Assembly: GCF_963921235.1 (NCBI RefSeq)
Contig: NC_086108.1
Span: 45,262,001-45,326,000, forward strand
Length of the DNA: 64,000 nucleotides
Origin: Mobula hypostoma
Taxonomy: Eukaryota
Reading direction: 5' to 3'
The notes beneath the pieces were generated by a model. The model did no database searches. It saw nothing but the letters and a program-made list of their open reading frames with translations, and was not told the DNA's origin. Both the position numbers and the translations under genes were made by a program. Of this stretch, positions 44,547 through 58,683 are shown piece after piece. Within the stretch, counting starts at the first letter, position 1. Every line of letters begins with the position of its first letter.

Positions 44547-46944
44547 GTATTCCGTCACACTCCTGACTGAACAATGTACTGTGGATAGTGGACAGGTTTG
44601 GGGAGGGGGAAGGGCTGAAGAGGTGAGTTACTCATGCAGAATTCCTGACCTCTGACCTACTCTTGCCATTTTTTTGCATATAGCTACTCCAGTTTAGATT
44701 CTGATCAAAGATAACCCCTAGGATATTGATAGTGGGACATTCAATGATAGTAATGCCATTGAACATCAGGAATAATAGCTGGATTTTCTCATGTTGTATA
44801 TCATTATTGCTTGGCTCATGTGCAGCATAAATGTTACTCGCCAACCCACAGCCCAGGCCTGGATATTGTCCAGGTTTTCCTTCACTTGTTTATGGAATGC
44901 TTTATTACTTAGGGAGTTATGAATGCTGTTGAATATTGTGCAATCATCAATGGAAAATCTCTACTTGAGACCTATGAATCTAACAGAATAGATAAAAGGA
45001 ACCTGTAGATATAATGTATTTGGATTTCCAGAAAGCCTTTGGGGAGAAATGGCAGAATGGTGTAGTAGTTAGTGCCCCTGCCACACAGCTTTGGGGATTG
45101 TATTCGACCCTGATCTCTGGTGTTGTCCTTGTGAAGTCTGCATATTCACCCTGTGACTGTGTGAATGTCCCACTGGAATGCTCAAGATTCTTCCCATGTG
45201 GCTGGTTAACTGCATACTGTAAATTGCCCCTAGTGCATGCGTTGCAGGAGAATCAGGAGTTGGTGGGGACTTGAGAGCACAAATGGATTAGTGTAGTTGG
45301 GTGATTGATGTTTAACATGGCCATAATGAGCTGAAAGGCCTGTGTCTATATTGAATGACTCTAACCTGTCATATATGTAAGCAGTTATTAAAAAACACCT
45401 GAGATTGGTGATATACACTGGGATGGATCAAGGATTATTTAATAGTTAGAGGCAGAGAGTATGAATACAAAAATAGGGTGCACAGCTGTAACAAATGGGA
45501 TGCCATGGGAAATGGGGTGGTGCCCACAACTATTTATAATCATTCTCAGCGATATGAAAGGTAGGAACTGTTTGAACGAACCTTCTGCATGAATCACGTA
45601 AAGTTACAGTGCAGATGTAGCAAGCAGTTCAGAAGGCAAGCTCTATAGGCAGTCATCAGGTTACCACCGGGTCCTGTTGCTGAGAACTCTTCCTAAGTGA
45701 GAAATAAACAAAAACAGTGTGTGACAGAGGATTAGAGAGACCGCTGAGACGGAAGAGTGAACAAGCATAGGAAGAGTGGCAGCAAATCGGCCTCACTGAC
45801 TCAGTGAATCAGCAAGTGAGTCTGCTCAACGCACCCAGCTCTGCCTGGCTCATTCCTTTCCCTGATCGTGTGGCTCAGGGGCAGGGAGTGGGGAGCGAAG
45901 ACATTCCCACCCACAGAAGGTGCCCACAATCCCACAACAGCTGGCAAATACATCCCCATCAATTCTGCCAGTCTCTCAAATACTAATTTGTATGGCTGGA
46001 GCATCAGGCGTTTGTAACCTGTGCAGGGCCTGTTCTGGCCTGTATTTCAAGAATATAAGAATAAAAACAGATTTTCTGGACATATATAGAGTCCAGATGA
46101 AATTGTATATAGAATATTGTGTACTGATACCTAAAGAAGGATATATTTGTGGTAAGGGAATGCCCCAACAGTCCACCAGATAAATTTGAGCAGCTGTCCT
46201 ATGAAGAGAGACTAAACACACTGGATCTATAATTCAGAAGATGAGAAATAACCTCATTGAAATTTACAAAATTCTTGCAGGGTTTGACGGGATAGATACA
46301 GAGGTGATGTTTCTATTGATGAGAGCTAGTGGTTCGAATTCAATGGAAGCTCCATTCAAATTTTCCAAGGTCAGTCTGAGCAGCAGCTTGACCTCTCATG
46401 CCCACTAACACATTGATCAAATAGGATCATCATGTATGTAATGGACACATGTATATGCTGCATGTTTTCTCACTTCCACTGAAAAAATACAGATCGAGAA
46501 GGAGGCCGTAGTTTATCCTCTGACCAAATTCAACTCTTCAGATATTGGCATCTTCCTGAGTACAATGTTAGACTTTGTAGCTCTCTTAGCATAATTATTC
46601 TATATGGCACAGAATCTCATGATCGAATGCTATGGCTGATGCACTCTAGAATGCCAAGTGAGAAAGTGATCATTTGGTTGGCACTAAAAGTGTTCATGCG
46701 GGAGGATTTCACAGTTAATGCTGATGATGTTCTTAGGGCCACCTAGTGAGATATTCTGCTTAGAGACGTCCACAAGTACAGCCTGTTAGACAATTACTGT
46801 ATAATTTTGAGTTGGATATCAACAATGTCACTTAGCCTTCCTGAAGGCAGTGGCAAAAAAACTAAACGTAGTTATTCCAAAGGTATTGCAGGGTGTATTA
46901 CCACTAATGTTCATATTCAAAACAAGGGGATGTTGTACATGTAA

Positions 46945-47545
46945 GTTCAAAGTAAATTTATGATCAAAGTACATATACGTTGCCATGTACTACCTGCAGA
47001 TTCATTTTCTTGCAATCATTTACAGTAGACCAAAGAAATACAATATAACCAATGAAAAGCCACAAATTAAGACTGACAATCAATGTGAAGAAGTAGGCAA
47101 TCTTTGCATATAGAAGTAGTAATAAAAATAATAAATAATTAATACTGAGAACAGGAGTTGGGGAGTCCTTGAAAGTGAGTCCATAGATTGTGGAGTCAGT
47201 TCAGAGTTGCCGTGAGTGAAATTATCCATACTGATTCAGGAGTTTAAGGGTTGAAGGGTAAAAGCTGTTCCTGAACTTGGTGGTGGGACCTAAGGATCCT
47301 ATACCTCCTTCCTGATGGCAGCAGCAAGAAGATGGATGTTGGGCATCCTTGATGATGTATGCTGCTTTCTTGTGACAGCTCCTTGTCGATGTGCTCAGTG
47401 GTGGGCGGGTTTTGCCTGTGACGAACTGGGCCATATCCACCACTCTTTGTAGGTTTTTCCATTCTTGGGCATTGCTGATTCCACACCAGGATGTGATACT
47501 CTCTGCTGGGCATCTATAGAAGATTGACAAAGTATTAGTTGACAA
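46945..47545 (-). mobile_element. Rex1-type 3' fragment
   Basis: FYRC..SITSW, KKAAYIIKD and KFRNSFYPSTLKLLN plus tail. Confidence 0.85.
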
Positions 47546-47559
47546 GCCAGATCTGTATA

Positions 47560-49323
47560 TTTTTCTGAGAAATGAACAGACAAACCGAGCCTAAAATGCA
47601 AGGCTCCAGAAATTAAGACAACTAAGAGGTGGTCATGGGCAGCAGAGGAATGGCTACAGAATTCCTTTGAGTCATTGGATTGGACCCTGTTCAAGAACTC
47701 ATCAAAGGATCTGAATGACTACACTTTATTAAATCAGCTACAGATCAGTGTGTCCCCACGAAATCATTCAGGGTCTAAGCTGGATGAAATCTGGAACTCG
47801 TTGAGGGCCAGATTAGAGGTATTCAAGTCTGGAGATGAAGAATGCTACAAGGTATGATCAATGGAAAGCCATTTGATGGGTGAAGTGGAGAGTTCAGACT
47901 AGAATGGAATCAATGAGGGATGCTCGACAGCTGTGGCAGAGTTTGAATGCCATAACCTCCTACAAAGCTAAATCTTGCGATATAGGGTACACTTCCTGAG
48001 GAGCTCAATGCCTTCTATGCTTGATTTAATCACCAGAACAGGAAGAGTGTGGTAACCTTCATCAATGACTATCACACAGTGGCATTTATATCCACAGTAA
48101 GGACGTGTTTTGAGAGGCTGGTGTTGAAACATATCAGCTGCTGTCTGAGCAGTGACTTGGATCCGCTCCAATTTACCTACCGGAGCAACAGATCCACAGC
48201 AGGTGCCATTTCATTGGCTCTTCACACAATCCTGGAACATCTGGACAGCAAAGATGCACATTTCAGGATGCTCTTTATCAATTACAGTTCAGTATTTAAT
48301 ACCATCATCCCCTCAAAGCTAATCAGTAAACTCCGAGACCCGGGCCTCAATCCCTCCTTGTGCAATTGGATCCTGGATTTCCTCACTTGCAGACCCCAGC
48401 CAGTTCAAATTGGCAAAAACATCTCCTCCACAATCTCCATCAGCACAGGTGCACCACAGGGATGTGTACCTTAGCCCCCTGTTCTACTTGCTCCACACCA
48501 ATGATTGACGGGCTAAGTACAGGTCCAACACCATATTCAATTTTGCTGATGACACCACTGTTGTGGGCTGTATCAAAGGTGGTGATGAATCAGCATACAG
48601 GAGGGAGATTGAAAATCTGGCTGAGTGGTGTCATAACAACAACCTCTCACTCAAATGTCAGCAAGACCAAAAATCTGATAGTAGACTTCATGAGAGGAAA
48701 ACCAGAAGTCCATGAGCCAGTCCTCACTGGAGGATCAGAGGTGGAGAGGGTCAATAACTTTAAATTCCTGGGTGTCACTATCTCAGATGACCTGTCCCGG
48801 ACCCATCATATCAATATTATTGCCAAGAAAGCACAACAGCGCCTCTACTTCCTTAAGAGTCTGTGGAGATTCAGCATGTCATCGAAAACCTTGGCAAACT
48901 TCTATAGATGTGTGGTGAAAAGTGAATTGACTGGCTGCATTATGGCCTGGTATGGGAACACTAACGCTTTTGAATGGAAAATCCTACAAAGGTCGTGAAT
49001 TTAGCCCACTGCATCACGGATAAAGTCCTCCCAACCATTGAGCACACCTACATCAAACTCTGTTGTAGAAAAGCAGCATCCATCTTCAAAGATCCTCACC
49101 ACCCAGGCCATGCTCTTTTCTCACTGCTGCCATCAGGTAGAAGGCAAAAGTGCCTCAGGACTTGCACCATCAGGCTCGAGGACAGTTACTACCCCTCAAC
49201 CATCAGGCTTTTGAACAAAAGATGATAACTACACTCATCTATTGAGATGCTCCCACAATCAATGATCTCACCTTAAGGAGTCTATCTTGTTATTTCAGGC
49301 TCTCATTATTTATTTCTATTTGC
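47560..49323 (+). mobile_element. Rex1/Babar-type LINE, decayed; 3' UTR cut off at the Gypsy LTR
   Basis: [32 protein letters not shown] and SYYPSTIRLLN. Confidence 0.9.
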
Positions 49324-49542
49324 TGTGTATGTGGCCCGGTTACACAACAATGCTATTAATAAAAACATGGGAGACGGGAGCTAAGTTTCATGGTTCTTTA
49401 CTGGCATAATCTGAACTCAGCACACAGGTACAGATCAATACGCACCTAATAGCGCATGCTCAATATGCACCCAATAGCGCATTCAACGATGTGTTACTAA
49501 AACATAAAGTAGTCCCTTATATAGTGTAGGCTATATGGTACA
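49324..49542 (-). repeat. 3' LTR (about 219 bp)
   Basis: Begins TGTACC directly after the PPT and ends ...CATACACA at the Rex1 junction. Contains TATATAAG and an internal duplication of about 25 bp (49436-49486). Confidence 0.8.
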
Positions 49543-49560
49543 CTCCTCCCCTTTTATTTT
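49543..49560 (-). promoter_or_regulatory. Polypurine tract
   Basis: AAAATAAAAGGGGAGGAG immediately 5' of the LTR TG. Confidence 0.85.
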
Positions 49561-50118
49561 AATAGTGTATCAACTGTTTTTTTTTTACTGGGGCACTATG
49601 CTAAACAAATATGTTTACCCTTAACATACAAACGCCTACCATTTGTTTACTTAGTAACTTAATAATATCAAATTATAACAAAGTAACGTAATAATTTCAA
49701 ATTATAACAAGCCTTTTTTTTTACTTTTGGTCTAAGACCCATTTATAACTCAAGTCTCTGGGGGTGGAGGGTCTGCTCTAGATTGTCCGGCACTGAAGCA
49801 AATAGGTCTTCACTCTATTGTCTGGAATAAATTGAACAATCCACAATTTGGCAGGTTCCAGCCATAAAGAGTAGGCATGTCAATCTTGCAAAGATGGCAA
49901 AAGCAAAGTGAAATCGATGAAAAGGTGAATGTTATTCTTAAAAATATGTACAATCATCAAAACTGAGATGGCATTGGAAAGTGTCTTCAAATAGTGTGTT
50001 CTTCAGTCTGTCAATAAACTTGTTTGTTTTAATACAGATTGCCATATAAAAGTCATGAAAAGTTGACTTCTGAGCATAGGGAGTTAAAAAGATATGCGCC
50101 TCCAACTTGCTAAGAGTT

Positions 50119-51055
50119 CTAGGCAGCAGATTGCCTCTGTATAATGAAGACTCCTCTATGCAGCTGTCCTAGATATATACGTATCTTTGTGCTATCACTT
50201 GTCTTCCTTACCCATATCTCATTTGTTCCAGCTGAGCTAATTACACAGCCAATCTTCGTATTCTCCTGAGATTCCAAATAGATAGCCTGACCTTTATGAT
50301 ACCATCTCTTATCGTAATATAACTTTCCATCTTCTATTCATGCTTCATATCTTTGTGCTGGTGATTCAGCACAAGTGCTGGGAAGATGCTCAAGAGAAGA
50401 CAGAGATGCTGGTCTTTTCGGAGATTTAAACTTATTGAGAGTTCGCAGATCTTCCATTATCTGTTCATCTGTTAACAAGTAATTTAACTGTGCAAGTGCA
50501 GGTTTTCGTCTTTTGTCTGTAATTGGAACAGGGTCATTAGGTCTCTTCCAGAGTTTCCTAGTCATTATTGGCTTTACCTCCATAGAATCTCCTGTGAGTT
50601 CCATTATTAGCCTCTCAATCTCAATCATCTTTTTTCTTTTCTTCTAACTCAATTTTTTTATCTTCAAATTCCTTCACTGCTGCTTTGTTCTGTTTAATAT
50701 AATTCCTTTCCACTCGTTCTGTCTCCAGTTGCAGAAAAAGCTCTGCATTTCATATTCCTTCCTTGAATTGTTGATCTAGTTTCTTCATCCTTTTCTGATA
50801 CTCCTGCAAAGTGCCTTCCTGTAACTGCTGTAGCTGTCGTTTGAGAGATGTCAATTTCTCCTGGTACATCTGCTCTTTTACTTCCAGGTAGTCTTCATCA
50901 TCCTGCTTATTGGCAGTATCTGTCTCCCTTGCATCCTCTGTATCTTCATCTGAGTCGTGGCCACGGATACTGTGTTCGTCCTCATCGTCGACGCTGTCTA
51001 GCTCCTCCTTGTCATTGTAATAGTTGACAATGGGTGAGAGGAGAGCTGCGGACAT
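50119..51055 (-). pseudogene. SUDS3: Intronless retrocopy of SUDS3/SDS3 (Sin3-HDAC complex subunit), full CDS span, disabled
   Basis: MSAALL...DSDEDTED...[37 protein letters not shown]...[11 protein letters not shown]...[51 protein letters not shown]...[15 protein letters not shown]...SAA*. TGA stops at 50750-50752 and 50338-50340, a +1 frameshift in the A-run near 50630, and an apparent 8-codon deletion near 50645. Confidence 0.97.
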
Positions 51056-51074
51056 CTTCCCCGCTGAGCTGCCC

Positions 51075-51408
51075 TCCTTTGTTGACACATCTAGTGCCTT
51101 GACGGTGTGCCAAACCAACTGGATTTTCCTGAGCCGTTCACGTCCCATTCACGTCTTCCATTTTTCAGTACATAGAGGTTCAGTTGCTGTATTTTGTCTC
51201 CGTAGGTCACTGTCACTTTAACTTTACCTTTGGGATGCACTTTCTGTCCTGTGTAAGTCTCTAGCTGTAGTTTAGTTCGTTTCAGAGGTGTGTGAGATAC
51301 AGTCGTTTGTTGTCGTGTACAGAGATCACTGTTAAAGCTGAGCCTGTGTCCAACTCCATTTTCAGTCTCACGCCTGCCACTTGTGGAGTGATCCTTATTA
51401 CTCTTCAA
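51075..51408 (-). pseudogene. Retropepsin (aspartic protease) region of Gypsy pol, frameshifted
   Basis: LKMELDTGSALTVIS (DTG at 51342-51350), LETYTG and LYVLKNG, then [12 protein letters not shown]. Colinear with the Gypsy at 30430-30730. Confidence 0.9.
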
Positions 51409-52251
51409 TCATCTGTCTCTTTCACACTGTGAAGTTGTAGACAAGACAACTTCGTCTGAGTCATTTTCATCAGAACTGCCTTCTTTCATTTTGTGTACAT
51501 TGCTGTGTTTTCCTTTCTGGGGTTTCTTGTTTCTCTGTATTTTGTCCTTTTTCTGCTGTTGACTAGCTTTGCATACTCTGCCAATGTGGCCCTGTTTGCC
51601 ACAGTTTCTGCATTCCTTGTCTTTAAACCAACAGTCATCCGGGTCATGTGACCTGTTCCCACAACGGTAACATTTCTTTCCATCATTCCTGTTCAGTGAC
51701 ATTTTATTTGTGGCATATTCCAGATTTTTTTGTTGTATCTCTGAAGCACCCGGTGCCGCTGTTTCCATTGATATTGCAATGTTTAGCGCTTTCTCCAATG
51801 TAAGGTCTCTTTTACACAGAAGCTTCTTCTGGATGGTTTCACAGTGCATGCCACACACTAACCTGTCCCTCAATGCGTCTGATAGACCAGCTCCAAATTG
51901 ACAATGTTCTGATAATTTGCACAGTTCAGCACAATATTCAGAAATGTTTTCATTTTTGCTCTGAGTCCGATTGTGAAATTTAAATCTTTCAGCAATGACC
52001 AGTGGTTTGGGGTTTAAATGCTGTTGGAGAGTGTCTACTATTTGCTTGAACGTTTTGTCAGCTAGCTTTTCAGGGGTTAACAAGCTTCGTAGCAGGCTGT
52101 ATGTTTTTGCTCCCGTGATACTGAGTAAGACGCTGGCTTTCTTTTCATCCTTAACACCGTTAGCCTCACAATGTAACTCCACTCTTTCAATGTAAGTTGC
52201 CTGGTCTTCAATGCCACTAGCAAATGCTGTAAGGGTTCCAGTCATTGCCAT
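51409..52251 (-). CDS. gag: Gypsy Gag (two CCHC zinc knuckles), open from ATG 52251
   Basis: YIERVELHC..N, PLVIAERFKFHNR, LRDRLVCG, CYRCGNRSHDPDDC and CRNCGKQGHIGRVC. Confidence 0.9.
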   Translation of the reverse strand: MAMTGTLTAFASGIEDQATYIERVELHCEANGVKDEKKASVLLSITGAKTYSLLRSLLTPEKLADKTFKQIVDTLQQHLNPKPLVIAERFKFHNRTQSKNENISEYCAELCKLSEHCQFGAGLSDALRDRLVCGMHCETIQKKLLCKRDLTLEKALNIAISMETAAPGASEIQQKNLEYATNKMSLNRNDGKKCYRCGNRSHDPDDCWFKDKECRNCGKQGHIGRVCKASQQQKKDKIQRNKKPQKGKHSNVHKMKEGSSDENDSDEVVLSTTSQCERDR

Positions 52252-52365
52252 CTTTGTTATGTTAATTAAGCCCCATTCTCCCCTTATTTTCCTTTTTGAC
52301 TCACGTGTCCTTTTTGCTAGTGCCACGAGCGCACTCCGTCTAGATGTGTGTGTTTCACTGCTTTT

Positions 52366-52640
52366 TACATGCTGGTCCCAGGACAGATCCTCTGATATAT
52401 CACCGAGGAATTTAAAGTTACTGACCCTCTCCACCTCCGATCTCCTAATGAGGACTGATGTATGGACCTCTGGTTTCCTCCTCTTATAATCAATAATCAG
52501 CTCTTTAGTTTTGCTGACAATGAGTGAGAGATTGTTGTTGTGCCAAAACTCAACCATTTTTTCAGTCTCTCTCCTACACGCTGTTTCATCACCACTTTTG
52601 ATTCGGCCAACAACTATGGTGCCATCAGCTACTTAGCCAT
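52366..52640 (-). mobile_element. Rex1 RT internal fragment abutting the Gypsy leader
   Basis: NNNLSLIVSKTKELIIDY...FKFLGDISEDLSWDQHV; forms the artefactual N-terminus of ORF 51409-52557. Confidence 0.85.
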
Positions 52641-53714
52641 GAAGCTCATGGCTTGAAGTTTTTATCTTAGTCAATAACTGGCCAAGAGACAAGTGTGCTT
52701 GTTGTGTCAGGACTGCAGGATACAGCCATATCTGATTCTTAAATATATGTACATAAGAATTAGAAGCAGAAGCAGGAAATTTGGCCATTTAAATCTGTTC
52801 TACTTCAACTCCACTTTTTCCACACTGTCGCAATATCCTTGAAACCTTTTAATATCCAGGCGTCAGTCAGTTCCTTTTCTGAATGAATTCAATGACTGAG
52901 CCTTCACAGCTCAGAATTCCAAAAAAATTCTCCTCATCTGGGTACTAAATGGCCTACACCTTAATCTGAGACAGAGATCTCTGGTTTGAAACTCTGCACC
53001 AGATAAAGCTTCCTTCTGAATAGACACTATAAGAAATTCATCTTTCATTGAAATCATCTCTTATAAGCTCAGCTTTTCAAGAGAGATTGATTTGTTAATT
53101 TTCAGCAAGGCTGCATTTTTTCCTCATTTTGAGGATAGCCACTTAAAATGGGACCCTCCAAAACTGAAGAAAAAACAAATCGAAATTGTGAGTTTTTTTC
53201 CCATGCATACCTGATTTAAGAGTTGGTCTTGGATAATGAAAATGCCTGACTTGCTTTAAAGCTGGTCTAACAGTTCTTTTGAGTACAAGTTACAGCTTTT
53301 ATGTATATTGGTAACAAAGTGTGGTATTGGTTTGAAGTGTAATTGACTCCTGGTTAAGCAATAGCTCAGTTTTACAATTATTGTCCTTGTTTTTCAATGC
53401 TTCCATGATCTCACCCCTTCCTATCCCCATTAACTCCTCTAAAATATCTGTCCTCCTTTAAATCAGCCTTTATTCTACAATTCTGCATCTGCCAAGATCC
53501 AAGATCCAAATCTCTGGAAGTCACTTCCTAACTCCTTCCACCTTACAATTTTATTTCCCTCTTTAAAAAAGCTCCTTAAAACCTTTCTATTTGATTGTTT
53601 TTAGTCTTTTATATGATGGCATTAATTCAATGTCAAAGTCGATGTCAATGCCAATGTCATATTTGTCCTATGCACAAATACATGTGTGCACAGGTACAAT
53701 GAGAAACTAATTTA

Positions 53715-54955
53715 AGATCATAAGACCATAAGATATAGGGGCAGAAGTAGGCCATTTGGCCCATTGAGTCTGCTCTGCCATTCAATCATGGGCTGATCCA
53801 ATTCTTCCAGTTATTCCCATTCCCCTGCCTTCTCCCCATAGCCTTTGATGCCCTGGCTAATCAAGAGCCTGTCTATCTCTGTCTCTGCCTTAAATGCACC
53901 CAATGGCTTGGCCTCCACAGCTGCTGGTGGCAACAAATTCCACAGATTTACCATGCTCTGACTAAAGTAATTTCTTTGCATCTCTGTTCTAAATGCACGT
54001 CCTTCAATCCTGAAGTCATGCCCTCTTGCCCTAGACTCCCCTACCATGGGAAATAACTTTGCCATATTAGATTAGATTAGATTATGAGGACACTCAGTCC
54101 TCGTTTATTGTCATTTAGAAATGCATGCATTAAAATGATACAATGTCCCTCCAGAAAGATATCACAGAAACACAGGACAAACCAAGACTAAAACTGACAA
54201 AACCACATAATTATAACATATAGTTACAACAGTGCAAAGCGATACCGTAACTTGATAAAGAGCAGACCATGGGCACGGTAAAAAAAAAGTCTCAAGTCCC
54301 GATAGCCCCATCATCTCACACAGACGGTAGAAGGGAGAAACTCTCCCTGCCATGAACTCCAAGTGCCGCAAACTTGCTGATGCATTGGAAGCACCCGACC
54401 ACAGCCGACTCTGAGTCCGTCCGAAAACTTCGAGCCTCCGACCAGCCTTCCGACACCGAGCACCGAGCACCATCTCTGCAGAGCGCTTTGACGCCAGCCC
54501 CGGCCGCCAAGCAACAAGCAAAGCCGAGGACTCAGGGCCTTCCCCTCCAGAGATTCTGGATCGCACAGTAGCAGCGGCAGTGAAGAAGGCATTTCAGAAG
54601 TTTCACAGATGTTCCTCCATGCTCTCACGTCTGTCTCCATCAAATCAGGATTGTGCACGGCACCCTACTTGACAGATAACAGGTATCACTCACCGGTGTG
54701 GCCGCTGCAAGCTGCGTCGCGCCGCCATCTTCTCCCTTATCTAACCTGTTTCAGAATGTTTCTATGAAATCCCCCTTCATTCTCCTGAAGTCCAGGGAAT
54801 ACACCCCAAGAGCTGCCAGACGTTCCTTATATGGTAACTCTTTCATTCCTGGAATCTTTCTTGTGAATCTTCTCTGAACCCTCTCCAATGTCTGTATATC
54901 CTTTCTAAAATAAGGAACCCAAAACTGCACACGATACTCCAAGTGTGGTCACACG
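53715..54955 (-). mobile_element. CR1 3' fragment interrupted at 54067-54736
   Basis: EYRVQFW..RKDI..LERVQRRFTR and ESRARGH..NYFSQ..NLWN; taagaccataaga tail. Confidence 0.9.
54067..54736 (-). mobile_element. Apparently full-length non-autonomous retroelement (about 670 bp) with (CTAAT)n tail
   Basis: 5' end GGGAGAAGATGGCGGCGCGACGC, CpG-rich body, AATAAA, then (CTAAT)n; splits the CR1 sequence gccata|tctaa. Confidence 0.75.
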
Positions 54956-55248
54956 ATTGATAAATGAAAGATGAAGTTGTTATTTGCCTTGGCAGGGGTG
55001 TCTAGAATCATAGGACATAGGAACAAAATTACGTCATTCATACCATTGAGTCTGCTCTGCCATTCGATAATGGCTGGTTTATTATTCCCTCTCAACCCCA
55101 TTCTCCTATCCTGTCATTGTAACCTTTGACATCTTGGCTAGTCAACAGCCTATCAACCTCCAGTTTACTTGACCTCCACAGCTGTCTGTGGCAATTAATC
55201 CTGCAGCATCACCACCACCTATTGGCTACAGAAATACTTACTTATCTC

Positions 55249-56087
55249 ATAGTCATAGTCATAGTCATACTTTATTGATCCTGGGGGAAAATGGTTTTCG
55301 TTACAGTTGCACCATAAATAATAAATAGTAATAAAACCATAAATAGTTGAATAGTAATATGTAAATTATGCCAGGAAATAAGTCCAGGACCAGCCTATTG
55401 GCTCAGGGTGTCTGACCCTCCAAGGGAGGAGTTGTAAAGTTTGATGGCCACAGGCAGGAATGACTTCCTATGACGCTCAGTGTTGCATCTCGGTGGAATG
55501 AGTCTCTGGCTGAATGTACTCCTGTGCCCAACCAGTACATTATATAGTGGATGGGAGACATTAACCAAGATGGCATGCAACTTAGACAGCATCCTCTTTT
55601 CAGACACCACCGTGAGAGAGTCCAGTTCCGTCACCACAACATCACTGGCCTTACGAATGAGTTTGTTGATTCTGTTGGTGTCTGCTACCCTCAGCCTGCT
55701 GCCCCAGCACACCACAGCAAACATGATAGCACTGGCCACCACAGACTCGTAGAACATCCTCAACATCGTCCGGCAGATGTTAAAGGACCTCAGTCTCCTC
55801 AGGAAATAGAGACGGCTCTGACCCTTCTTGTAGACAGCCTCAGTGTTCTTTGACCAGTCCAGTTCATTGTCAATTCGTATCCCCAGGTATTTGTAATCAT
55901 CCACCATGTCCACACTGACCCCCTGGATGGAAACAGGGGTCACCCGTACCTTAACTCTCCTCAGGTTTACCACCAGCTTCTTAGTCTTTTTCACATCAAG
56001 CTGCAGATAATTCTGCTCACACCATGTGACAAAGTTTCCTACCGTAGCCTTGTATTCAACCTCATCTCCCTTGCTGATGCATCCAAC
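55249..56087 (-). mobile_element. Rex1/Babar-type 3' portion with (GACTAT)n tail, nested in CR1 (55010-56340)
   Basis: KKGQSRLYFLRRLRSF and SFLPVAIKLYN; TATCTC duplicated at 55243-55248 and 56088-56093. Confidence 0.9.
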
Positions 56088-56910
56088 TATCTCTGTTCTA
56101 AAGTGGCATCCTTTTATTCTGAGGCTGTGCCGTCTAGTCCTAGACTCTCCCACTATTGGAAACTTGCTCTCCATCTCCACTCTGTATAGGCCTTTCAATA
56201 TTTGGTAGGTTTCAACGAGAGCCTTCTCATCCTTATAAACTCCAGTAGATACAAGCCCAGAGCCGTTAAATGCTCCTCTCGTTTCAATGAACCCTTTCAT
56301 CCCCAGCATTATTCTCGTAAATAGCCTCTGGATTCATCAACACCAGCAGATTCTTCCTTAGATATGAGGGCAAAAACTGCACACAGTACTCCAAAATGAT
56401 CCTGCACCTTCCGAAATAATCTCAGAAGCATCTGCCATTGCTGCTGTGCCATTCATCCCATCTAGAGTCTCTTTCCAATCAACCTTGGCTAGCTCCTGTC
56501 TCCTGCCTCTGTAATTATCTTTACACAACAGTATTTCCAGTACATCTGATTTTTATCCTCTCCCTCTCAAACTGCAGGATAAATTCTATCATATTATTAT
56601 CACCATCTCCTAAGGGCTCCTTTAATCTCCCTAATCAAACCTAGTTCATTACAAAACACTAAATCTAGAATTGCCTTTTTCCCGAGTGGGCTCGTCTACG
56701 AGCTGGTCTAAAATGCCATCTCACCGGCATTCTACAAATCCTTCTCTTGGGATCCAGTGTCAACCTGATTTTTCCAGTCTACCTGCATATTGAATTTCTC
56801 CATGATCACCATAACATTGCCTTTCTTACATGTCTTTTCTGTCTTCTTTGTACCCCATATCCTGGCTACTATTAGATGGCTTGTATGTAACTCCAAACAG
56901 CATCTTTTTA

Positions 56911-58683
56911 GAAACATAGAAAACCTACAGCACAATACAGGCCCTTCGGCCCACAAAGCGGTGCCGAACATGTCCTTACCTTAGAACTACCTAGGCTTAC
57001 CCATAGCCGTCTATTTTTCTAAGCTCCATGTATCCATCCAGCAGGCTCTTGAAGGACCCTATCACTTCCGCCTCCACCGCCGCTGCCGGCAGCCCATTCC
57101 TTGCACTCTCCACTCTCTGCATAAAAAAACTTACCCCGACATCTCCTCTGTACCTACTTCCAAGCACCTTAAAACTGTACCCTCTCGTGCTAGCCATTTC
57201 AACCCTGTAAAAAAGCCTCTGACTATCCACATGATTAATGCCTCTCACTATTGTGTACAGCTCTATCAGCTCACCTCTCATCCTCCGTCACTCCGAAGAG
57301 AAAAGGCCAAGTTCACTCAACCTATTCTCATAAGGCATGCTCCCCAATCCAGGTAACATCCTTGTAAATCTCCTCTGCACACTTTCTATGGCTTTCACGT
57401 CCTTCCTGTAGTGAGGCGACCAGAATTGAGCACAGTACTCCTAGTGGGGTCTGACCAGGGTCCTATATAGCTGCAAAATTACCTCTGGGCTCTTAAACTC
57501 AATCCCACGATTTATGAAGGCCAATGCACTGTATGCCTTCTTAACCACAGAGTCAACCTGCGTAGCAGCTTTGAGTGTCCTATGGACTCGGACCCCAAGA
57601 TCCCACTGATCCTCCACACTGCCAAGATCTTACCATTAATGCTATATTCTGCCATTATATTTGACCTACCAAAATGAACCACCTCATACTTATCTGTGTT
57701 GAACTCCATCTGCCACTTCTCAGCCAGTTTTGCATCCCATCAATGTCCTGCTGCAACCTCTGACAGCCCTCCAGACTATCCACAACACCCCCAATCTTTG
57801 TGTCATCAGCAAATTTACTAACCAATCCCTCCACTTCCTCATCCAGGTCATTTAAAAAAAATCACAAAAAGTAAGGGTCCCAGAACAGATCCCTGAGACA
57901 CTCTACTGGTCACCGACCTCTATGCAGAATATGACTCGTCTACAACCACTCTTTGCCTTCTGTGGGCAAACCAGTTCTGGATCCACAAAGCAATTTCCCC
58001 TTGGATCCCATGCCTCCTTAACTTTCTCAGTAAGCCTTGCATAGGGTACTTTATCAAATGCCTTGCTAAAATCTATATACACTACATCTACGGCTCTACC
58101 TTCGTCAATGTGTTTAGTCACATCCTCAAAAAATTCAATCAGGCTCATAAGGCACAAGCTGCCTTTGACAAAGCCATGCTGACTATTCCTAATCATATTA
58201 TGCCTCTCCAAATGTTCATAAATCTTGTCTCACAGGATCTTCTCCTTCAACTTACCAACCACTGAAGTAAAATTCACTGATCTATAATTTTCTGGGCTAT
58301 CCCTACTCCCTTTATTGGATAAGGGAACAACATCCGCAACCCTCCAATCCTCTGGAACCTCTCCCTTCCTCATTGATGATGCAAAGATCATCGCCAGAGG
58401 CTCAACAATCTCCTCCCTCGCTTCCCACAGTAGCCTGGGGTACATCCTGTCCGGTCCTGGTGACTTATCCAATTTGATGCTTTTCAAAAACTCCAGCACA
58501 TCCTCTTCCTTAATATCTACATGCTCAAGCTTTTCAGTCCGCTGCAAGTCATCCCTACAGCCCTTTTCCGGAGTGAATACTGAAGCAAAGTATTCATTAA
58601 TTACCTCTGCCATCTCCTCCGGTTCCGTACACACTTTTCCACTGTCACACTTGATTGGTCCTATTCTCTCATGTCTTATCACG
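56911..58683 (-). mobile_element. CR1 RT/3' end nested in an older CR1 APE region (about 56400-59040)
   Basis: KSPGPD..YPRLL, SQHGFVKG and DFSKAFDKVP; same subfamily as 3944-5079; TCTTTTTA duplicated at 56903-56910 and 58684-58691. Confidence 0.9.

Follow-up and report, generated by a model that had tools for sequence, protein, structure and literature searches.

A Ty3/Gypsy element carrying a spliced SUDS3 message, present in hundreds of copies in the genome of Mobula hypostoma

Host messenger RNAs copied into long terminal repeat (LTR) retrotransposons have been described by Tan et al. 2016 (Genome Res, PMC5131818) as LTR-mediated retrocopies or pseudo-LTR retrotransposons, with a median microsimilarity of 6 bp at the fusion points. 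In the cases set out in the portion of that paper drawn on here, an intronless mRNA copy replaces an internal part of the element and has LTRs on both sides, microsimilarity is found where the two meet, poly(A) is missing, the mRNA is truncated at its 3' end, and some of the products retropose further. All of this applies to the family of a Ty3/Gypsy element that lies on the minus strand of a window of 64,000 nucleotides from Mobula hypostoma (contig NC_086108.1; positions below are those of the window) and carries the chromatin gene SUDS3 behind gag and protease, with a microsimilarity of 7 nt at two of the three junctions found in its family. As set out below, it is very probable that the reverse transcriptase (RT), RNase H and integrase of a Gypsy element were replaced by a spliced host SUDS3 mRNA, and that the product was then amplified by means of the parent's proteins. 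Whereas the same portion of Tan et al. deals with single copies or few sites, the SUDS3 carrier is represented by at least 150 scored copies out of several hundred candidates, has taken up the whole coding sequence (CDS) in frame with gag-protease, and includes a subfamily with a second 3' junction. Measured against that source, the mechanism is already known, and what is unusual is its scale, with hundreds of copies in a vertebrate; no published report of such an element in rays was found in the open-access literature.

Other comparable systems are cited here by way of PMC5131818. In acute transforming retroviruses (Swain and Coffin 1992; Goodrich and Duesberg 1990, via PMC5131818), a spliced host cDNA likewise replaces replication genes and is often fused to gag; such viruses are replication-defective and helper-dependent, and the exchange occurs by non-homologous or microhomology recombination in reverse transcription; the SUDS3 carrier, however, is a germline Ty3/Gypsy element with no env and no link to transformation, and it has become a high-copy genomic repeat. 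The human processed pseudogene formed by HERV-K and FAM8A1 (Jamain et al. 2001, via PMC5131818) also joins a vertebrate LTR element to a host mRNA with microsimilarity, but it is one locus, untranscribed, that has not been amplified into a family. Maize Bs1 and the rice retrocopies within LTR retrotransposons (via PMC5131818) are likewise non-autonomous and mobile and contain pieces of cellular genes, although they are plant elements and Bs1 has pieces of three genes.

The carrier family, its parent family and the host gene

The searches for copies were made in the window's own assembly (3.5 Gb), in which the numbers of first-look candidates are loose and are not copy numbers. When the whole element was used as a DNA query, the best 40 of 3210 first-look candidates were scored and all 40 proved to be copies of the same chimera, 14 of them extending from query position 13 or earlier to 3042 or beyond at 88-90% identity. 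A query with the C-terminal 211 amino acids of SUDS3 gave 861 candidates, the best 150 of which were scored and are without exception contiguous intronless copies, spread over 31 contigs; furthermore, a 601-nt query laid over the 3' junction returned 40 matches that all cross it. The chimera thus occurs far more often than chance would allow. The maize element Bs1 is one of low copy number.

We fetched 11 further carrier copies with their flanks, giving a set of 12 with the window copy. As the preliminary description of this DNA, made from the sequence of the window, had asked for, there are other copies with the same junctions and different flanks: beyond three short repeat matches, the 12 copies have nothing in common in their 400-nt flanks. 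Both LTR ends are present in eight copies, as direct LTRs of the form TG...CA. Of these eight, four have a perfect 5-bp target-site duplication, a fifth does so once its mutated LTR end is shifted 3 nt earlier, two have one mismatch, and one has no duplication. In L002, a ninth copy, the upstream LTR is itself preceded by a polypurine tract, and the copy therefore abuts another element. Within single copies the two LTRs differ by 6.6-13.1% (six copies), and a conserved TGGCGAYGAGG located 3 nt after the 5' LTR in seven carriers and one parent may represent a putative site like a primer-binding site (PBS). The chimera has therefore been shown to have been copied and integrated hundreds of times, and the mobilisation in trans envisaged in the preliminary description is borne out by hundreds of copies that have no RT or integrase.

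In two unrelated insertions, L011 and L012, the target duplication CTATC and the preceding GAAAT are the same, which hints at a target preference or at a small repeat common to both sites.

The parent family was identified through the gag-protease part. Taken from one carrier (L004) as a query, it is 58-62% identical over 93% of its length to fish Gypsy polyproteins of about 1310 amino acids, one of which contains protease, RT, RNase H and integrase in that order. Searching the genome with that polyprotein led to decayed full-length elements, which match residues 2-1315 of a 1315-residue polyprotein with this domain order, and 10 such parent copies (L022-L031) were fetched. All 10 match the carrier gag-protease at 85-92%, and in all of them the match stops at the 5' junction (carrier position 1796), in one copy 36 nt earlier; in nine it resumes with the tail and the 3' LTR, and RT, RNase H and integrase lie in between. 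In the window, 49743 to 49779 is occupied by the last 12 codons and the TAA (49745-49743) of the parent pol frame (...RRPPQRLEL*), as aligned across 12 carriers, eight parents and the host gene. The end ...PPQRLEL*, which the preliminary description had taken for a pol terminus, is the true pol terminus of the parent family. The parent sequence accordingly breaks off at the 5' junction and picks up again with the last 12 codons of pol, so that a replacement, as had been proposed, and not a simple insertion is present. The domain order protease-RT-RNase H-integrase is not found in the carriers, which possess gag and protease only and are therefore a non-autonomous derivative rather than complete members of Ty3/Gypsy.

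Gag-protease distances are 9.6% between carriers, 10.2% between carriers and parents and 10.1% between parents, and in a tree of this region (L001-L012 and L022-L031) carriers and parents are interleaved, several nodes having a support of 0.8-0.98. The interleaving could reflect repeated recombination between co-packaged carrier and parent RNAs, or poor resolution. Taken together with the divergence between the LTRs, the equal distances and the interleaving indicate that carrier and parent were active in the same period, long ago.

One protein query and two DNA queries for the host gene returned carrier copies only. Named SDS3 proteins of cartilaginous fishes hold eight residues (KENLIAEL) that are missing from the cargo, and a degenerate pattern for the 11 residues KENLIAELEEK, composed of these eight and the next three, occurs at one place in the 3.5 Gb. 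The host SUDS3 gene (G000:C78, L014-L021) spans about 59 kb, with 12 exons, 11 introns (10 GT-AG and one AT-AC) and an intact protein of 319 amino acids; its exon alignments are 84-100% identical to the protein named SDS3 of Mobula birostris, with mismatches at exon edges and an alternative exon. When host and cargo are aligned exon by exon, all 11 introns are missing from the cargo. The AT-AC intron (intron 7), with the donor ATATCCTTTT and CTTAAC 9 nt before the acceptor, has the appearance of a U12-type intron, and it has been removed as cleanly as the others.

The window's SUDS3 CDS runs on the minus strand from the ATG at 51055-51053 to the TAG at 50121-50119 (50119 to 51055). It is preceded by 12 nt of host 5' untranslated region (UTR; 51056 to 51067) and followed by the first 339 nt of the host 3' UTR (49780 to 50118), which follow the CDS without a break within the last host exon and are cut internally, with no run of A at the end; beyond this point the host sequence differs. 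A complete intronless CDS with about 330 nt of 3' UTR and no poly(A) had been described here. Alignment to the host gene upholds the extent of the CDS, the intron loss and the UTR, now delimited, but not the intactness of the frame, which is interrupted by two stops and by an insertion of 1 nt and is short of 24 nt from exon 6. This 24-nt in-frame deletion, located between two TGAGTT repeats, is present in all 37 carrier copies compared. The N-terminal piece of the window cargo matches Pfam Sds3 with 26.2 bits against a cut-off of 25.4. Carriers differ from the spliced host mRNA, UTRs included, by 4.9-7.7% (92.3-95.1% identity; 37 copies) and from each other by more, 8.0% on average, as expected if the host gene stayed near the captured sequence while the copies decayed separately.

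Junctions and the course of the capture

At the 5' junction the parent reads ...CAAAGGAGGGCAGC|AAGGCTACATC... and the host 5' UTR ...GGGGGCGGGCAGC|TCGGCGGGGAAGATG...; all 12 carriers follow the parent through GGGCAGC and then continue as host, whereas all eight parents compared continue differently. GGGCAGC (51068 to 51074 in the window) is common to the 12 carriers, the host and six of the eight parents, with the remaining two differing at one base, and in 300,000 random parent-host pairings the probability of a microhomology of at least 7 nt was 0.00055 per junction. Across this junction SUDS3 is kept in the frame of gag-protease. The main 3' junction lies at 49780|49779, where the host reads ...CAATCT|GGAACATTTTTT... 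and the parents ...GGC|AGAGAAGACC...; the carriers link CAATCT to AGAGAAGACC, identically in 12 of 12. A second carrier subfamily (L059, L060 and L061; G000:C68, C12 and C58), first seen as skipped stretches in the alignments and making up at least three of the 40 scored whole-stretch candidates, has the same 5' junction and another 3' junction, in which the cargo ends about 113 nt past the stop and is fused to a point in pol lying 28 nt further upstream, at a shared 7-nt GACAGAC. Neither 3' form can be derived from the other by deletion, and two 3' junctions on one 5' junction are informative on how such captures occur.

Contigs from four sequencing runs, labelled as four organisms, contain many members of the family in all four, and runs guessed to be RNA, which may be DNA, have contigs that cover most of the stretch. 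The main 3' junction is spanned by a single contig, from run X9, and the second 3' form is seen in four contigs; contigs of runs X16 and X20 fit the cargo up to 49780, and the letters beyond it in X20 read as host 3' UTR. Such contigs cannot demonstrate transcripts of the chimera. No RNA run was listed for the stretch, and no run contained half of the sampled words.

The most likely course of events is the following. A SUDS3 mRNA would have been packaged with element RNA in a virus-like particle, where the reverse transcriptase, during minus-strand synthesis, may have switched from the end of pol onto the SUDS3 3' UTR, copied the mRNA with one slip over a 6-nt repeat at the cost of 24 nt, and jumped back to the element RNA just past the protease, at the 7-nt match GGGCAGC. 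In the founder, about 2.7 kb of RT, RNase H and integrase of an autonomous Gypsy element of about 4.9 kb were very probably exchanged for a fully spliced SUDS3 mRNA, the captured piece beginning 19 nt ahead of the ATG and ending 339 nt past the stop. The chimera retained LTRs, PBS-like site, leader, gag, protease and polypurine tract, with SUDS3 in frame behind gag-protease. Having neither RT nor integrase, it must have depended on those of its parent family, which was active over the same period. The second subfamily probably arose later, via another 3' switch at GACAGAC.

Several points weigh against this account. The preliminary description had proposed looking for microhomology at both junctions, and although 7 nt are indeed shared at the 5' junction and in the second 3' form, the main 3' junction has just 0-3 nt. 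For the polymerase slip that may have caused the 24-nt loss, the flanking TGAGTT repeat is the sole indication. No competent parent was seen, as the 10 fetched parents hold 2-17 stops in the matched stretch. In addition, the sampled copies were taken from the best-scoring matches, such that the most diverged members and odd forms are under-represented. Finally, the data do not discriminate at the 5' junction between template switching and a DNA deletion or read-through, and the route is not proven. The preliminary description had proposed a double template switch leading to a non-autonomous, gene-carrying element; the product is as it supposed, whereas switching at both junctions is not settled, since the 5' junction may have been made first, at the DNA level or by read-through.

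The second of these routes has a precedent in oncogene transduction. A parent element would have been inserted upstream of SUDS3, and a genomic deletion, or read-through and deletion, would have joined the end of its protease to exon 1; the fused RNA would then have been spliced and packaged, and template switching onto co-packaged parent RNA would have made the 3' junction alone. We consider this unlikely, at roughly one chance in a handful. It would suit the finding of a single 5' junction with two 3' junctions, as from repeated rescue of one 5'-fused RNA, although the second 3' form is equally derivable from the first by one more switch with parent RNA. The 7-nt microhomology also suits a microhomology-mediated deletion, and 3' transduction independent of similarity is named as an alternative in the portion of Tan et al. 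(PMC5131818) drawn on here. However, no relic of a parent element was found in the 100 kb around host SUDS3, a region that contains only dispersed repeats of unrelated kinds and a single fragment of another element, 68% identical. Moreover, the 5' junction is not at a splice site but within exon 1, 19 nt ahead of the ATG, and was therefore not made by splicing, which counts against this route as well.

The junctions also bear on whether a processed SUDS3 pseudogene made by a long interspersed nuclear element (LINE) landed in a Gypsy element from which pol was deleted later, a course of events that we regard as having next to no chance of being correct. LINE reverse-transcriptase fragments do adjoin the window copy, and a 2026 preprint (10.64898/2026.06.26.734816), in the portion drawn on here, attributes the retrocopies of cartilaginous fishes in general to non-LTR elements. 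Yet the cDNA has neither a poly(A) tail nor a duplication on its two sides, and its 3' UTR ends short of the natural end. The 12 copies agree exactly at both junctions and are flanked by LTRs with 5-bp duplications of their own, and two junctions fall within 7-nt microhomologies. The junction alignments refute this route. Among the features that the preliminary description had named as telling against capture, neither poly(A) with a duplication around the cDNA nor pol continuing across it was found, and the LTR and polypurine tract belong to the same family as the gag. Each of the checks proposed there turned out in favour of its interpretation.

Fate of the SUDS3 cargo and bearing on retrocopy counts

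Reading frames are interrupted in all 12 fetched copies, the window copy included, and the cargo is interrupted in 36 of 37; the remaining copy keeps an uninterrupted frame of 311 amino acids. On a rough estimate, 36 of 37 is about what neutral decay predicts. One copy retains a 560-residue frame that runs from gag into Sds3, with gag-like and Sds3 matches. At 26 sites, at least nine of the 12 carriers differ from the host: 12 of the changes are synonymous, three alter an amino acid, 10 fall in the 3' UTR and one in the 5' UTR. The three amino-acid changes alter residues that are conserved across other cartilaginous fishes, which places these changes on the element's side. The synonymous excess is specific to the true frame with 37 copies (10 to 2, against 2 to 10 and 0 to 12 in the shifted frames) and reflects purifying selection that acted on the host gene once the capture had taken place.

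With 12 copies, constraint on the cargo itself had seemed present, because shared changes were poor in amino-acid changes. This was dropped when 37 copies gave the same effect in a wrong frame: for changes common to 2-29 copies, comparison with singletons yields an odds ratio of 0.65 in the true frame, and the two wrong frames yield 0.64 and 0.86; the deficit is therefore ascribed to recurrent transitions and not to selection. For singleton changes in the cargo the ratio of amino-acid-changing to synonymous changes is 3.0. There is no evidence of selection on the cargo, which decays neutrally, and no service to element or host is seen.

These results speak to the further proposal that the cargo was useful, in that a Gag-protease-SDS3 fusion or a free SDS3-like protein aided the spread of the element by disturbing Sin3/HDAC silencing, or that it became a host retrogene. 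SUDS3 does stand in frame with gag-protease; the family is of the same order as its parent (510 first-look candidates for the cargo against 1835 for the parent pol region with queries of equal length, both loose numbers); and the single uninterrupted 311-residue frame can be counted in favour, as can four SDS3-like Mobula gene models that bear the marks of the family. Against this, the shared changes show no frame-specific lack of amino-acid changes, singletons have the ratio given above, nearly every cargo is broken, and each of the three shared amino-acid changes alters a conserved residue, all of which makes a useful cargo very improbable. It is an equally slim prospect that the founder's Gag-protease-SDS3 fusion interfered with or recruited Sin3/HDAC silencing and so gave a defective element the edge by which it attained hundreds of copies; on this reading, the few open SDS3-like frames that annotation calls genes may still be expressed.

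The four gene models (P0002, P0004, P0006 and P0026, from two Mobula species) share the 8-residue loss together with T and G at two conserved sites, and one of them starts with residues of the protease end. From these marks they look like annotated carrier cargoes and not paralogues; annotation pipelines label decayed carriers as 'SDS3-like' genes.

The portion of the 2026 preprint (10.64898/2026.06.26.734816) drawn on here lists SUDS3 as one of the five leading parental genes of retrocopies in cartilaginous fishes and interprets lists of this kind by non-LTR activity and selective filtering. The carrier family probably explains the SUDS3 entry in that list, by a cause other than non-LTR elements, and counts of retrocopies per parental gene can accordingly be dominated by one hitch-hiking event. 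One capture can be enough to make a high-copy repeat out of a single-copy chromatin gene, and with host gene, parent, product, three junctions and hundreds of descendants in one genome, this family is an unusually complete natural record of gene capture by a vertebrate LTR retrotransposon.

For SLU7, another of the top retrocopy parents in the same part of the preprint, the genome gave five matches, all exons of one gene, and no retrocopies were found here. An expansion of the PWI domain in this genome was not found either (3 matches).

The window copy and its surroundings

The element in the window is one dead copy, truncated at its 5' end, from a non-autonomous Ty3/Gypsy family whose elements are about 3.5 kb long. 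Its gag (51409 to 52251, ATG at 52251, minus strand) is an open frame with two CCHC knuckles, for which the Pfam zf-CCHC match is weak (E 0.0079, below the cut-off). The protease region follows at 51075 to 51408, with D-T-G at 51350-51342 and the end ...GRE.LRKIQL.W..., and the parent match continues to 51068; it is frameshifted in the window copy, whereas other carrier copies keep the protease end in frame as LKMELDTGSALTVIS. Gag (52251-51409) and protease (DTG at 51342-51350) had thus been placed on the correct strand, with an error of a few bases at most.

The stretch from the pol stop to the polypurine tract (49561 to 49742) is an AT-rich untranslated tail derived from the parent; it matches the tails of parents L027, L028 and L030. 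The polypurine tract AAAATAAAAGGGGAGGAG (49543 to 49560), as read from the sequence, stands directly before the LTR, and the same tract precedes the LTR in L002. The 3' LTR, a TG...CA unit of 222 nt (49321 to 49542), was aligned to both LTRs of full copies. The preliminary description had given the tract and the LTR start at 49542 correctly but had ended the LTR at 49324; comparison with 11 other copies sets the end ...ACACAGCA at 49321.

The window LTR has an internal duplication of about 25 nt that is missing from many other copies. Across the family there are a long form of about 222 nt, with the tandem duplication GCGCTATTRGGTGCRTATTGA of about 25 nt (49420-49480 in the window), and a short form of about 198 nt, and the form often differs between the two LTRs of one copy (L002-L012). 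Just past the 3' junction (49761-49773 in the window), a run of C varies from 2 to about 20 letters across L002-L012; judging by sequence, it appears to have been expanded from the parent's CCTCCCC.

Upstream of gag, a leader remnant occupies 52252 to 52367. Comparison with full copies indicates that the window copy is cut here: its similarity to other copies ends at 52365-52367, full copies extend over about 260 nt of leader and the 5' LTR, and contigs of the family from the sequencing runs likewise carry on with leader sequence beyond the window copy (loose ends at 52353). No second LTR copy, as a direct repeat, was found for this element within window positions 46000-58000. Reverse-transcriptase-like fragments of another retroelement border the copy on both sides in opposite orientations, at 48025-49225 on the plus strand, which matches Pfam RVT_1, and at 52368-52632 on the minus strand. 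The minus-strand fragment breaks off within its reading frame at the very point where the carrier is truncated, and one deletion or rearrangement therefore probably removed both ends.

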